Shown here: positions 50,906-64,000 of the stretch, in pieces | Layout: each line of letters starts with the position of its first letter | Numbering within the stretch: the stretch's first letter is position 1 | From: Escherichia coli | GTDB taxonomy: Bacteria > Pseudomonadota > Gammaproteobacteria > Enterobacterales > Enterobacteriaceae | DNA length: 64,000 nucleotides | Assembly: GCF_003334255.1 (NCBI RefSeq) | Contig: NZ_QOWU01000009.1 | Reading direction: 5' to 3' (one strand) | Program-made: the position numbers and the translations under genes | Notes under the pieces: model-generated | What the model was told of the DNA's origin: nothing | Database searches by the model: none | Seen by the model: the letters and a program-made list of their open reading frames with translations, nothing else

Positions 50906-51113
50906 GATGAACTTAATCAATCTATATTATTGAATAATAAGTATATATTTAAACGCCTCCCTATAAATAGCCCCCAATATAGCCCCCAAGGTGTAGTTGT
51001 TATACATGGAGGTATATTGAACTCTGTTGAAATATTCTCTGTAATGGTTCAGTGAATGCAGCATACCTACCTGTCTTGTTCCGGACGAGACACAATACCT
51101 GTGATATATAAGT

Positions 51114-51962
51114 CTATACTGAAGAAGATACTTTTCCCGCATAATGTTTCGCAATAATATCATTTAGCCGATCAACCAGTTCTGGTTTCCTGAACGTGAT
51201 GTGTGCGGAGCCCTTCTTAAAGTATCTGATGTTGAACATCTCATCTTCATAGCACACTTTGCCCTGAACGGAGCGGATGTGATCATCCAGCCGAATGATG
51301 ATATTTTCCCGGCTGTCGGGGATCGGTTTGCCGCTGAACAGGTGTAGCATTCTTTCCAGGTCGGCGAGTCGATCTGCCTGTTGCCCGGTGATAAGATGCA
51401 ATCCCCATCTGTCCCACCTCACCAGGTTGTTGACGATAATTTTACTGCCAAATTTACAGGGGGAATTGGTTTTGTAATTCCAGTTCAGCCCTCTGAAGAC
51501 GTTGATCACCCCTCGCTCAAACACTTCATCTTTGTTCTGGTGCAGTTGTTCAAATGTGCTCAGAATGTTCGCTTCACTGATTTCCGGAAAATTATCGTAC
51601 TCCAGTGAGCTGTACCATGTATCACGGGCCTGCACATCCATTAATGACAGCATCCCGGAACGTTGCATCAGGTCACGCCAGATTTCGCGGTCAAGATTGC
51701 GGGTGATGGCTTTCATTGCGGTTTCCGGTTTCTCCATGAGCCAGCAGCCACAGCGAAAATCCTGTTTCATGGCCCAGTCCAGAGCAGTTTTACCTCCAAT
51801 ACTTTCTGTCAATACCGAGATTTCAGCCAGTTGCCGGATAAGTGTGTCGATTTGCAGCAGTGTAGTCTTTCGCACAGCCAGAATGTGACTGACTGAGGTG
51901 GAGCAGATAACGTCCGTATGCCCGTTGACCACTTCCGGACGGGAGACTGTGATTGCAGACAT
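51114..51962 (-). CDS. Hypothetical protein, 282 aa, family not recognised; last gene of the island before the ulaE junction
   Basis: Long ORF with coding-like composition, co-directional with the island genes, ending about 200 bp from the junction. Confidence 0.5.
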   Translation of the reverse strand: MSAITVSRPEVVNGHTDVICSTSVSHILAVRKTTLLQIDTLIRQLAEISVLTESIGGKTALDWAMKQDFRCGCWLMEKPETAMKAITRNLDREIWRDLMQRSGMLSLMDVQARDTWYSSLEYDNFPEISEANILSTFEQLHQNKDEVFERGVINVFRGLNWNYKTNSPCKFGSKIIVNNLVRWDRWGLHLITGQQADRLADLERMLHLFSGKPIPDSRENIIIRLDDHIRSVQGKVCYEDEMFNIRYFKKGSAHITFRKPELVDRLNDIIAKHYAGKVSSSV

Positions 51963-52046
51963 AATCGATATTCCTTTTCGCAGATAAATGAAAACGCCAG
52001 CCCTGTTCAGGCTGGCGTCAGTGGAATGAAGTATGGTGAGTGAGAC

Positions 52047-52244
52047 TCACCGGTTTTGTTGCAGAAACTGCAGTTGGCGCAGGATACGGATATCTTCCCT
52101 GGCCTGTTCAATACAGGGCAACAGTGCTGCCGAATCCGTTTTATCCTCATCGTTGTCGAAGATAATCCCTGATTCGCAGTCAATATTGTCCTGCAGCCAC
52201 GCAATCAGAATATCCAGCGCCGTTTCTGTGGTTAATAATTTCAT
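52047..52244 (-). CDS. Small acidic hypothetical protein, 65 aa
   Basis: ORF MKLLTTETALDILIAWLQDNIDCESGIIFDNDEDKTDS..., 19 bp downstream of the YeeW-like gene on the same strand; small acidic proteins occupy this position in CP4-type elements. Confidence 0.4.
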   Translation of the reverse strand: MKLLTTETALDILIAWLQDNIDCESGIIFDNDEDKTDSAALLPCIEQAREDIRILRQLQFLQQNR

Positions 52245-52263
52245 CCAGTGTCTTTTGTCCTGA

Positions 52264-52752
52264 TTACCAGTCGAAAGTGGGTAAACCCGGCAGACATTCT
52301 GCGCCGGCGTCCAGATGAATTAGACTGACGCCATAACGCCGGGTGAGAGTGACGACCAGACGACGGAACGTTCTTGACAGGCCCAGGCGTTTAAGCCGCA
52401 GAACCGGGTATGACCACGCATCGGTACGTAACAGATATCCGCTACCTGTGAAATGAATCCATTCTGATTCACCAACGTCACTGGTCTGATGCGACAGCGA
52501 GTACAGCCAGGCGTTGTCCTTTGCCGTAATATGTGCGGTACTGCAGCGTATGCCGTTCAGGGCAGCAAATGGTGGCATGCAGTCTGTTGAGGTCCGGTCA
52601 GATTCATCAACAACACGAAGGAAGTGGCCGTTATCGCAGACCACGTTAATCAGTTCAGCGAGCTCAATACCATCGACGTCAACGACAATGCGCCCCATGT
52701 TCAGTGCCTGCACGTTAATGCTGTCGGCTTCCAGCGTCAGGGCCAGTTTCAT
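52264..52752 (-). CDS. YeeW-like protein, 162 aa, translationally coupled to the CbtA-like toxin
   Basis: Its start overlaps the toxin stop (ATGA overlap at 52749-52752); position downstream of cbtA corresponds to yeeW in CP4-44. Confidence 0.5.
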   Translation of the reverse strand: MKLALTLEADSINVQALNMGRIVVDVDGIELAELINVVCDNGHFLRVVDESDRTSTDCMPPFAALNGIRCSTAHITAKDNAWLYSLSHQTSDVGESEWIHFTGSGYLLRTDAWSYPVLRLKRLGLSRTFRRLVVTLTRRYGVSLIHLDAGAECLPGLPTFDW

Positions 52753-63200: not shown

Positions 63201-63406
63201 GTCAGTGTTCCGTCGTTCACGGTTTCTCCCGCCTGTACAACCGTGTCAGCAGCCAGTGCCGGGACTGACATGACAGCAGCAAGAGACAGAGCAACCGCCA
63301 CACCGGCGCGTTTTCCCCGTGAGCGGGCCAGTTCGGAAGCCACCACCAGGGTGCCCGTAATGTGATTCCATACCAGCCTGTAGCTGGTGTTCAGATGTCG
63401 TTTCAT
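60287..63406 (-). CDS. flu: Antigen 43-family self-associating autotransporter adhesin
   Basis: 1039 aa from ATG at 63406 (MKRHLNTSYRLVWNHITGTLVVASELARSRGKRAGVAVALSLAA...): extended signal peptide, repetitive beta-helix passenger, C-terminal beta-barrel ending in ..LNVTF. The ORF track's 1091-aa version includes 52 leader codons. Confidence 0.88.
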   Translation of the reverse strand: MKRHLNTSYRLVWNHITGTLVVASELARSRGKRAGVAVALSLAAVMSVPALAADTVVQAGETVNDGTLTNHDNQIVFGTANGMTISTGLEYGPDNEANTGGQWIQNGGTANNTTVTGGGLQRVNAGGSVSDTVISAGGGQSLQGQAVNTTLNGGEQWVHEDGIATGTVINEKGWQAIKSGAVATDTVVNTGAEGGPDAENGDTGQTVYGDAVRTTINKNGRQIVAAEGTANTTVVYAGGDQTVHGHALDTTLNGGYQYVHNGGTASGTVVNSDGWQIVKNGGVAGNTTVNQKGRLQVDAGGTATNVTLKQGGALVTSTAATVTGINRLGAFSVVEGKADNVVLENGGRLDVLTGHTATNTRVDDGGTLDVRNGGTATTVSMGNGGVLLADSGAAVSGTRSDGKAFSIGGGQADALMLEKGSSFTLNAGDTATDTTVNGGLFTARGGTLAGTTTLNNGAILTLSGKTVNNDTLTIREGDALLQGGSLTGNGSVEKSGSGTLTVSNTTLTQKAVNLNEGTLTLNDSTVTTDVIAQRGTALKLTGSTVLNGAIAPTNVTLASGATWNIPDNATVQSVVDDLSHAGQIHFTSARTGKFVPATLKVKNLNGQNGTISLRVRPDMAQNNADRLVIDGGRATGKTILNLVNAGNSASGLATSGKGIQVVEAINGATTEEGAFVQGNRLQAGAFNYSLNRDSDESWYLRSENAYRAEVPLYASMLTQAMDYDRILAGSRSHQTGVNGENNSVRLSIQGGHLGHDNNGGIARGATPESSGSYGFVRLEGDLLRTEVAGMSVTAGIYGAAGHSSVDVKDDDGSRAGTVRDDAGSLGGYMNLTHTSSGLWADIVAQGTRHSMKASSDNNDFRVRGWGWLGSLETGLPFSITDNLMLEPQLQYTWQGLSLDDGQDNAGYVRFGHGSAQHVRAGFRLGSHNDMTFGEGTSSRAPLRDSAKHSVRELPVNWWVQPSVIRTFSSRGDMRVGTSTAGSGMTFSPSQNGTSLDLQAGLEARVRENITLGVQAGYAHSINGSSAEGYNSQATLNVTF

Positions 63407-63588
63407 CAGCTTTTCCTTAGATTGAGGGTGAATAAAAAAGCCGGTACCCACAAACGTGGATACCGGCAGGTAAAGGGTTACAGTGCCGGAGGTCCGGCTG
63501 TGGGAGTTTCTGAATTGTGGTTCTGTTGTTCCCTGAATGTCTTTCTGTACGTATCTGTGCATGTTACTGACAAAGGTTATTATTAGCC

Positions 63589-63632
63589 TATTGATCGATA
63601 TAAACGATCGATAAAATAGATATCGATCGTTT
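63589..63632 (-). promoter_or_regulatory. agn43 phase-variation switch: three GATC Dam sites in the OxyR operator
   Basis: GATC at 63593-63596, 63606-63609 and 63625-63628 within ttGATCgatataaacGATCgataaaatagatatcGATCgtttt, about 190-220 bp upstream of the Ag43 ATG. Confidence 0.65.
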
Positions 63633-63733
63633 TATTCTATTGTTGAGCTATTGCACGGACAAGAGAGACAGTAACGAAAACAGCGCTTTTGTGAGCAGAC
63701 TCAGAGTCAGGGTGGGCATCAGTCACGACAGGT

Positions 63734-64000
63734 TCAGAAGAAAATCCAGTTCCATACCGCACGGGCAACAGAGACCACCGAGTCACGGACGGCACGCAGA
63801 ACCGTGTGAGCAACAGAGGCAACACAGACGCTCTCCGCCGTGTCAAATATCCGGTCCACCTCACCGGTAAACTGTTCACGGGCCTGAGCGCGGACAGATT
63901 CCGTGCGCAGCTCGTCCTGCAGTCGGGTCATCAGGGGACTGGCGGCATGGTCGGGAAGCGCTGTCATGAGCGCACTGACCAGCGTATCCAGTTCCCAGCC
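63734..64000 (-). CDS. 3' end of the gene upstream of agn43 (possibly a YeeP/YfjP-like GTPase); 5' end outside the window
   Basis: Minus-strand frame is open from the window edge to a stop at 63734 (..GWELDTLVSALMTALPDHAASPLMTRLQDELRTESVRAQAREQFTGEVDRIF...); GTPase identity is inferred from the usual gene order only. Confidence 0.35.
   Translation of the reverse strand, partial: GWELDTLVSALMTALPDHAASPLMTRLQDELRTESVRAQAREQFTGEVDRIFDTAESVCVASVAHTVLRAVRDSVVSVARAVWNWIFF

Follow-up and report, generated by a model that had tools for sequence, protein, structure and literature searches.

In a 64,000-nucleotide (nt) stretch of Escherichia coli DNA (contig NZ_QOWU01000009.1; the whole stretch is called the window here, and all feature coordinates refer to it), the open reading frame (ORF) listing places ulaABCD on the plus strand, ending at 50842, and the gene that follows, ulaE, breaks off after 18 codons. 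What kind of element stands in its place, and how did it come to lie there? A preliminary description had read the DNA from 50906 onwards as a CP4-44/CP4-57-type island. We consider it very probable that 50908-64000 is the conserved, integrase-distal backbone of a genomic or pathogenicity island of E. coli, of the P4-integrase type, inserted site-specifically in the 5' end of ulaE.

The junction itself can be read directly in the window, at ulaE codons 15-19. Its features are as follows.

50852-50907, plus strand: 5' stub of ulaE, codons 1-18 (MLSKQIPLGIYEKALPAG), with a match to the NCBIfam L-ribulose-5-phosphate 3-epimerase family at the N-terminus
50894-50907, no strand: 14-bp attachment (att) core CTCCCCGCCGGGGA, from reading both junctions and aligning the ends
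50968-50988, plus strand: doublet TAGCCCCCA-N3-TAGCCCCCA, then CATGGAGG, from alignment of both island ends

The stub continues into island DNA as a hybrid ORF of 67 amino acids (aa; 50852-51055, plus strand). Nearly all E. coli genomes match a 701-bp junction-spanning probe to position 50907 only, and 64 match across; since most genomes stop matching at 50907, the start of 50906 given in the preliminary description is essentially exact. The integrase-side junction of ulaE is also present in exactly 64 genomes. Altogether, 64 of 5426 complete genomes of E. coli carry both junctions, and at the far end they have a P4-type integrase.

The closest of the complete genomes is that of strain TB06053: a megablast search with 50000-64000 gave full-length matches, the best of them this one at 99.1% identity. 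There the remaining ulaE lies 93 kb away. In front of it, at the integrase-proximal end of the island, come a second, identical 14-bp core CTCCCCGCCGGGGA and a tyrosine integrase gene transcribed divergently. The integrase (393 aa) adjoins this second att copy; across its full length it shares 34.5% identity with IntA, the P4-type integrase of CP4-57 (E 5e-76). In intact ulaE, the core forms part of a 15-bp palindrome, CTCCCCG-C-CGGGGAG.

The TAGCCCCCA-N3-TAGCCCCCA doublet with CATGGAGG recurs at the other end of the TB06053 island, in direct orientation and beside the integrase start codon (locus L003, 34755-34775); in the window it is about 60 bp from the att core. Two matches to the doublet occur in the 64 kb, against 0.2 expected. 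We regard the doublets as candidate arm-type binding sites for the recombinase or an excisionase. Recombination at the palindromic core CTCCCCGCCGGGGA, mediated by the integrase, would have brought the island into ulaE. CP4-type elements normally integrate at the 3' end of transfer RNA (tRNA) or transfer-messenger RNA (tmRNA) genes; none of these was found in 45000-64000, and a junction inside ulaE represents a variant target site. It has already been reported: Biggel et al. (2020, PMC7686366) describe pathogenicity islands that have inserted in the ula operon (ulaE-ulaD) and have a site-specific integrase.

Between 50908 and the end of the window, all genes lie on the minus strand, in a run that is unbroken between 51114 and 64000. 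The order set out in the preliminary description is borne out by the ORF listing with its translations, by the RefSeq annotation of TB06053 and by Pfam and NCBIfam profiles, and the annotation and our own profile searches concur gene by gene. Pfam identifies DUF4942, CbtA_toxin, CbeA_antitoxin, DUF932, RadC, DUF987, IrmA, Antirestrict, DUF5983_N with DUF5983 and four autotransporter domains (E-values from 1e-13 to 6e-68), and NCBIfam identifies Ag43 (NF033177) and RadC; the profile searches that the preliminary description called for thus confirm Ag43, IrmA, DUF932, Antirestrict, RadC, DUF987, CbeA, CbtA, DUF5983 and DUF4942. The order GTPase ... DUF932 ... antirestriction-RadC-DUF987-CbeA-CbtA, conserved at the integrase-distal end of CP4-type islands, is present here. 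At least 80% of the 50000-64000 stretch is held by 1039 of the 5426 complete E. coli genomes (megablast). A search for internal repeats in 50800-64000 gave only short ones, at chance level.

We propose that the genes fall into three blocks: a phase-variable surface block, a one-strand run of anti-restriction or establishment type, and a maintenance block. For Ag43, IrmA, ArdB, RadC and CbtA/CbeA, the activities suggested below for this copy are those known from their families. The surface block would comprise the IsrC small RNA (sRNA), the OxyR/Dam switch with three GATC sites, agn43, yeeR and irmA; it is listed here with its neighbours.

63734-64000, minus strand: last 88 codons of a YeeP/YfjP-type GTPase gene, truncated by the end of the window; collinear with the TB06053 GTPase (290 aa)
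63427-63630, minus strand: IsrC (Rfam IS102) sRNA / agn43 leader (Rfam RF00124, 246 bits, E 2e-47)
63593-63628, no strand: three GATC sites, OxyR/Dam phase switch of agn43, conserved with K-12
60287-63406, minus strand: agn43/flu, autotransporter adhesin Ag43, 1039 aa (NCBIfam NF033177)
57650-60166, minus strand: yeeR, full-length, 838 aa from ATG, 840 from an upstream GTG (AlphaFold2 (AF2) model, hydropathy, alignment, homologues)
57119-57574, minus strand: irmA, secreted interleukin-receptor-mimic protein, 151 aa, with signal peptide (Pfam PF18673, E 1e-37)
56821-57021, minus strand: DUF905 (YkfF-like) pseudogene with in-frame stop (tblastn with YkfF, 43% identity, E 8e-16)
56758-56787, minus strand: strong terminator-like hairpin, 13-bp stem and T-run (consensus scan only)

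The TB06053 GTPase is 49% identical to YfjP and YkfA. Ag43 is a full-length equivalog with signal peptide, passenger domain, autochaperone and beta-barrel, and has ESPR, AIDA, AC_1 and Autotransporter domains in Pfam, 1883 bits for NF033177 (cutoff 1200) and 95.5% identity to K-12 Flu. The ATG-started ORF 60287-63562 overstates the gene: the start equivalent to that of K-12 is at 63406. Upstream of agn43, the alignment with the corresponding K-12 flu region has a mean column identity of 99%, and the GATC sites stand at 63625-63628, 63606-63609 and 63593-63596. At these three sites Dam methylation and OxyR binding compete to set Ag43 ON or OFF (summarized in PMC9431211), and Ag43 would be expected to switch here in the same manner. 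Ag43 would act as a self-associating adhesin, and the irmA product as a secreted cytokine-receptor mimic (for IrmA, see PMC4807369 and PMC9431211). Depending on the strain, irmA is transcribed with flu-yeeR or from its own promoter (PMC9431211).

The gene cluster flu-yeeR-irmA(aec69)-aec70-aec71 of enteroaggregative E. coli (EAEC) 042, CFT073 and EC958 (PMC6480617, PMC9431211, PMC4807369) is the same arrangement, with yeeR and irmA intact, and the same literature places an Hha-family gene upstream, as in TB06053. We see no difference of substance, apart from the in-frame stop in aec70 (DUF905) here. That stop lies inside the YkfF alignment, and RefSeq annotates only a 29-aa DUF905 remnant. The pseudogene, between irmA and DUF932, was missing from the preliminary description, where the label 'DUF905-like' was attached instead to the ORF at 55645-55890; this ORF has no similarity to DUF905.

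The second block would consist of the six genes below.

55890-56708, minus strand: DUF932 protein, YfjQ/YafZ homologue, 272 aa (Pfam PF06067, E 1e-52)
55645-55890, minus strand: six-cysteine ORF, 81 aa; its start and the DUF932 stop share 1 nt
55072-55551, minus strand: Antirestriction-family protein, ArdB/KlcA type, YfjX-LfgA/YafX homologue, 159 aa (Pfam PF03230, E 3e-37)
54581-55057, minus strand: RadC-like JAB-domain protein, YeeS/YfjY-LfgB homologue, 158 aa, full length (TIGR00608 above cutoff; Pfam RadC, E 2e-44)
54297-54518, minus strand: DUF987 protein, YeeT homologue, 73 aa (Pfam PF06174, E 6e-38; 95% identity to K-12 YeeT)
53634-54278, minus strand: 214-aa protein, labelled 'antitoxin of toxin-antitoxin stability system' in databases, DUF8835 in one RefSeq record

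A tightly packed run of this kind would be typical of the anti-restriction or establishment regions of conjugative elements. The DUF932 protein is 73-74% identical to YfjQ and YafZ. The ArdB-type protein matches Antirestrict over the full domain and PHROG 10132, an anti-restriction protein family (E 6e-63). Plasmid KlcA and ArdB inhibit type I restriction in vivo, and the run would encode an inhibitor of this type. The RadC-like protein would be a JAB-type protease: LfgB, its CP4-57 paralogue, cleaves the antitoxin MqsA (PMC10846083). The cysteine-rich 81-aa ORF has no family match in Pfam and gave no BLASTP alignment to YkfF (DUF905/PF06006-type) at E<=100. Hundreds of E. coli contigs have it in conserved form, and some UniRef entries call it 'antirestriction protein', without a family match.

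The maintenance block would be formed by a type IV CbeA/CbtA toxin-antitoxin (TA) pair, followed by the DUF5983, DUF957 and DUF4942 genes.

53216-53584, minus strand: cbeA/yeeU, type IV antitoxin, 122 aa (Pfam CbeA_antitoxin PF06154, E 1e-53; 86% identity to K-12 CbeA)
52749-53126, minus strand: cbtA, type IV toxin, 125 aa (Pfam CbtA_toxin PF06755, E 7e-58; 96% identity to K-12 CbtA)
52264-52752, minus strand: DUF5983 protein, full-length form of K-12 YeeW, 162 aa (Pfam DUF5983_N and DUF5983)
52047-52244, minus strand: DUF957-annotated protein, 65 aa (RefSeq name; no match in the Pfam-A copy used)
51993-52019, minus strand: terminator-like hairpin between DUF957 and DUF4942 (consensus scan only)
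51114-51962, minus strand: DUF4942 protein, 282 aa, last island gene (Pfam PF13708, E 6e-68)

The genes cbeA and cbtA follow each other on one strand with a gap of 89 nt, the layout of a type IV pair. In the K-12 orthologues, the toxin blocks FtsZ and MreB polymerization and the antitoxin acts on these targets, not on the toxin (PMC5371832). By analogy, CbtA here would block FtsZ and MreB polymerization, CbeA would counteract it by bundling the filaments, and the pair would penalize loss of the element. The start of the DUF5983 gene and the stop of cbtA share 4 nt, and the DUF5983 product is 63% identical to K-12 YeeW over residues 5-56. The DUF4942 protein has a partial match to a DNA methyltransferase family in PHROGs (E 1e-15).

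Within the run from DUF932 to DUF957 the gene spacing is -4 to 93 nt. One hairpin with its T-run, at 56758-56787, separates the run from the agn43-yeeR-irmA block, and the other lies behind DUF957; bounded in this way, and in keeping with what is known of the family, the run is probably one transcription unit.

How does this stretch compare with the elements of K-12? Window proteins were searched against CP4-44, CP4-57 and CP4-6 by tblastn, and the module proved collinear with all three, as the preliminary description had anticipated. CP4-44 (yeeP-isrC-flu-yeeR-yeeS-yeeT-cbeA-cbtA-yeeW) has the shared genes in the same order at 86-99% protein identity: Ag43 95%, YeeR residues 1-519 94%, RadC residues 9-158 99%, DUF987 95%, CbeA 86% and CbtA 96%. 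It lies beside cobU, whereas the island of the window lies in ulaE; it lacks the 214-aa gene and intact DUF957 and DUF4942 genes, with a 30-residue tblastn remnant of DUF957 only, and its YeeW has only 64 aa.

The preliminary description had noted a long, intact YeeR in comparison with K-12, and rightly so. In CP4-44, YeeR runs at residue ~519 straight into residue 9 of RadC (locus L004, 14303-14330). From its sequence, K-12 CP4-44 is a deletion derivative of the window arrangement; the fusion implies that the deletion removed the 3' end of yeeR, irmA, DUF905, DUF932, the 81-aa ORF, ardB and the first codons of radC. Being two stumps of one deletion, the 510-aa 'YeeR' and the 148-aa 'YeeS' studied in K-12 are thus both truncated proteins. 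The same truncation of yeeR, with loss of irmA, aec70 and aec71, was described by Bernabeu et al. (2019, PMC6480617).

CP4-57 (at ssrA) and CP4-6 (at thrW) carry DUF932, antirestriction (YfjX-LfgA/YafX), RadC (YfjY-LfgB/YkfG), DUF987, antitoxin and toxin at 59-82% identity, with the GTPase and these genes in the same order at the integrase-distal end. In contrast to the window, they lack the agn43-yeeR-irmA block, the 214-aa gene, DUF5983, DUF957 and DUF4942, they have additional genes (yfjR-yfjW, yafY, ykfB) between DUF932 and the antirestriction gene, and they are integrated at tmRNA or tRNA genes.

Newer precomputed Pfam data label the homologues of the full-length YeeR as PF27347, YeeR_C. 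Serratia, Shewanella, Pseudomonas, Methylomonas, Cupriavidus and Herbaspirillum have full-length homologues that stand alone, without agn43 or irmA; the one in Methylomonas (locus L012, 7001-9514) is near HicAB, a TIR-domain gene and IS66. We derived the layout of the protein from an AF2 model (predicted local distance difference test score 78.9), a hydropathy scan and an alignment. They suggest long hydrophobic helices over residues ~1-160 and a long helix to ~206, a tandem winged-helix-like region at 209-345 followed by a Cys4 motif, an alpha-beta core with strong conservation (405-540, YeeR_C), and a glycine-rich C-terminal part. YeeR would be a membrane protein.

Seven residues of the YeeR_C core are invariant in the alignment (H412, E417, D424, D444, R445, Q453 and K455) and sit on a predicted alpha-beta-beta-beta-alpha-beta unit. 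Searches with YeeR gave a marginal match to C19orf12 only in the installed Pfam-A, nothing in the PDB by sequence or profile, weak matches to PADLOC PDC-M09B (E 2e-5 with the full protein and 5e-3 with the core), and nothing in PHROGs for the core and the winged-helix-like region. Foldseek against the PDB returned no match at E<=0.001, only tandem winged-helix-like ones (ESCRT-II, E 0.09). We considered E417...D444...Q453-x-K455 as a PD-(D/E)xK-like motif; the fold search did not support it, and it remains a guess, as does any nuclease-like or defence role of YeeR, which is equally without fold support.

The 214-aa gene had been described as an extra gene in the TA module. Extra it is with respect to K-12, which lacks it; unusual it is not, as 2001 of the 5426 E. 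coli genomes carry it, with as many as 8 copies per genome. Carriers include REL606, and one E. coli plasmid has the whole DUF932-to-DUF4942 module. The family is large: 2866 matches in a 90%-clustered database and 3526 cluster representatives at 50% clustering (E<=0.001). The protein has no match in Pfam-A, NCBIfam or PADLOC, none in the PDB by single sequence or profile, no match to its predicted fold among solved structures, and in PHROGs only a family of unknown function.

Homologues at 53-62% identity are found on alphaproteobacterial plasmids and in conjugation-gene clusters; 111 PLSDB plasmid records hold them, 41 of these typed conjugative. We read five such contexts, three plasmids and two genome contigs (loci L007, L008, L009, L010 and L015), with 7-8 kb flanks. 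The neighbours are genes for ParB-like proteins, ArdC or zincin, DUF932, RadC, ssb, Antirestrict, a strawberry-notch helicase, a relaxase and a type IV coupling protein (T4CP). Among known systems, the anti-restriction or establishment clusters of conjugative plasmids and integrative and conjugative elements (ssb, ArdC, ParB-like, KlcA/ArdB, RadC, DUF932) come close: the set of DUF932, ArdB, RadC and the 214-aa protein recurs in the alphaproteobacterial plasmids and conjugation-gene clusters. There it adjoins ssb, ArdC, ParB, relaxase and T4CP genes, whereas here it sits on a chromosomal, integrase-borne island; neither the window nor the annotation of the 93-kb TB06053 island shows a relaxase, type IV secretion system or oriT.

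No CbtA or CbeA was detected by tblastn in the flanks of the five contexts. In four of them (L007, L008, L010, L015) no TA pair adjoining the 214-aa gene is annotated, and in L009 the pair is the unrelated ParS/RES, so that no consistent linkage to a cognate toxin emerges. Across the same taxa the 214-aa protein is more conserved than its neighbours ArdB (37%) and RadC (42%). Because the alphaproteobacterial homologues occur without CbtA/CbeA nearby, we group the gene with the anti-restriction-type block and not with the TA pair. The protein likely belongs to an anti-restriction or establishment set from conjugative elements, its 'antitoxin' name being an artefact of adjacency; membership in the TA module, as the preliminary description had it, is not shown.

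Could the 214-aa protein still be a true third component of the CbtA/CbeA system, such as an accessory antitoxin or a regulator? The main evidence for such a link is adjacency, the gene lying 49 nt upstream of cbeA on the same strand, together with database proteins of 342-343 aa, P0003 and P0019 among them, that fuse the 214-aa protein in frame to CbeA (PF06154); one of these comes from a 4.66-Mb contig. The ParS/RES pair, a different one, after the 214-aa gene of an alphaproteobacterial plasmid also fits. Most of the fusions, however, are single-sequence clusters and could be artefacts of sequencing or gene calling, or rare deletions. All three CbtA/CbeA-type pairs of K-12 do without the 214-aa gene, the alphaproteobacterial homologues have no CbtA or CbeA in the flanks read, and the higher conservation than that of ArdB and RadC points to a role independent of the variable TA genes downstream. 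Nor did literature searches for 'DUF8835' and 'antitoxin of toxin-antitoxin stability' find a study of the family or an experimental basis for the name. A third component is therefore unlikely in our view.

Two side observations concern the surroundings of the gene. In four of the five contexts, its start is overlapped by the stop of a gene of 136-139 aa (MADYFTHFSC..., 51-88% identity between copies) with no annotated function (L008 7592-8008, L009 6589-7008, L010 4823-5233, L015 6592-7008). No E. coli counterpart is present in the window or in the TB06053 island, and no similarity between it and DUF987 is evident by eye. In the window, cbeA is extended upstream by an ORF of 158 aa that starts with ATG (53216-53692) and that, in another frame, overlaps the end of the 214-aa gene.

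We return to the reading of 50908-64000 as the distal part of a large island in ulaE. Some points weigh against it. Since the window ends at 64000, only related genomes showed the integrase, the second copy of att and the cargo. The 'anti-restriction' or 'anti-defence' label rests on the Pfam membership of one gene (PF03230). The hairpin scan, the basis of the operon boundaries, totals 17 against a shuffle mean of 11.7 (standard deviation 3.4), only modestly above it. Finally, any roles of the 214-aa protein, YeeR, DUF932, DUF987, DUF5983, DUF957, DUF4942 and the 81-aa ORF in this reading are putative.

The cargo described next is that of TB06053 and relatives, not of the window's own island. 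Starting from the integrase, TB06053 carries a two-component system, a UhpC-like transporter and an Fbp-type ATP-binding cassette transporter, then iha with lactate-utilization genes, hlyCABD and two-partner-secretion haemagglutinins, and last yfjI and an Hha-family gene before the GTPase gene and the module of the window. The Hha/YmoA-family gene (locus L001, 37141-37317) lies upstream of the GTPase-agn43-yeeR-irmA block, which fits the published linkage of hha2/hha3 with yeeR-irmA (PMC6480617). The pathogenicity islands in the ula operon of extraintestinal pathogenic E. coli (PMC7686366) occupy the same locus, between ulaD and ulaE, with a site-specific integrase; the cargo in relatives (hlyCABD, iha and two-partner-secretion adhesins) is of the uropathogenic E. 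coli type. The published islands were defined by papGII, and the annotation of the TB06053 island shows no pap operon.

In this genome the element might instead be a short, self-contained cryptic prophage like CP4-44, of about 15-25 kb. The window ends inside the GTPase gene, and K-12 CP4-44 and CP4-57 have sizes of 13-22 kb. Yet in all 56 genomes in which the ulaE junctions could be paired they are 38-131 kb apart (median 63 kb), and in TB06053, the closest, 93 kb; we thus find a short element improbable. The CP4-type reading of the preliminary description stands as to family and gene order, but not in the small tRNA-borne element that it implied, given the insertion in ulaE and these sizes in relatives.

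It is very hard to maintain that the junction is what an illegitimate deletion or inversion left behind when it placed a tRNA-borne island beside the ula operon: CP4-type islands do usually sit at tRNA or tmRNA genes, and junctions on opposite strands in GN02050 and JNEC-KY203, among the matches listed, attest to rearrangements here, but a precise 14-bp direct repeat marks both ends with the two ulaE halves both there and collinear, ~175 bp separate the core from the integrase gene's start, the TAGCCCCCA doublets match at both ends, the same two junctions recur in 64 genomes, of human, pig, chicken, cattle, deer, dog and water origin, no tRNA lies in 45000-64000, and the insertion site is already published. 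In GN02050 (NZ_CP095505.1) and JNEC-KY203 (NZ_AP045179.1), the ulaD-side and integrase-side junctions are 112-131 kb apart, an arrangement suggestive of an inversion of which one endpoint falls within the island.

The family to which the element belongs, the flu-yeeR-irmA cluster, the deletion in K-12 and the integration site in ula are already known, and sequences identical to the four products looked up (81-aa, 65-aa, 214-aa and YeeR) are in public databases. With its type, gene content, differences from K-12 and ulaE site already in the literature, the element itself matters little. What remains of note is the split of ulaE in carriers and two large, widespread families without known function, those of the 214-aa protein and of YeeR/YeeR_C. 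As for the former family, it carries a propagated and probably wrong 'antitoxin' name, and correcting the annotation would be useful.

The island splits ulaE after codon 18. Because the remaining ulaE and ulaF would then lie tens of kb from the ula promoter, normal expression of both is probably lost, judging from family knowledge. In TB06053, RefSeq annotates the ulaE remnant (locus L003, 33808-34623) as an intact gene of 271 aa; on our reading of the sequence its start would be an ATC codon within the att region, and the first 13 codons and the operon promoter are in fact missing. With the remainder of ulaE and ulaF displaced from the ula promoter, L-ascorbate catabolism may be altered in the carriers, which account for about 1% of complete E. 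coli genomes.

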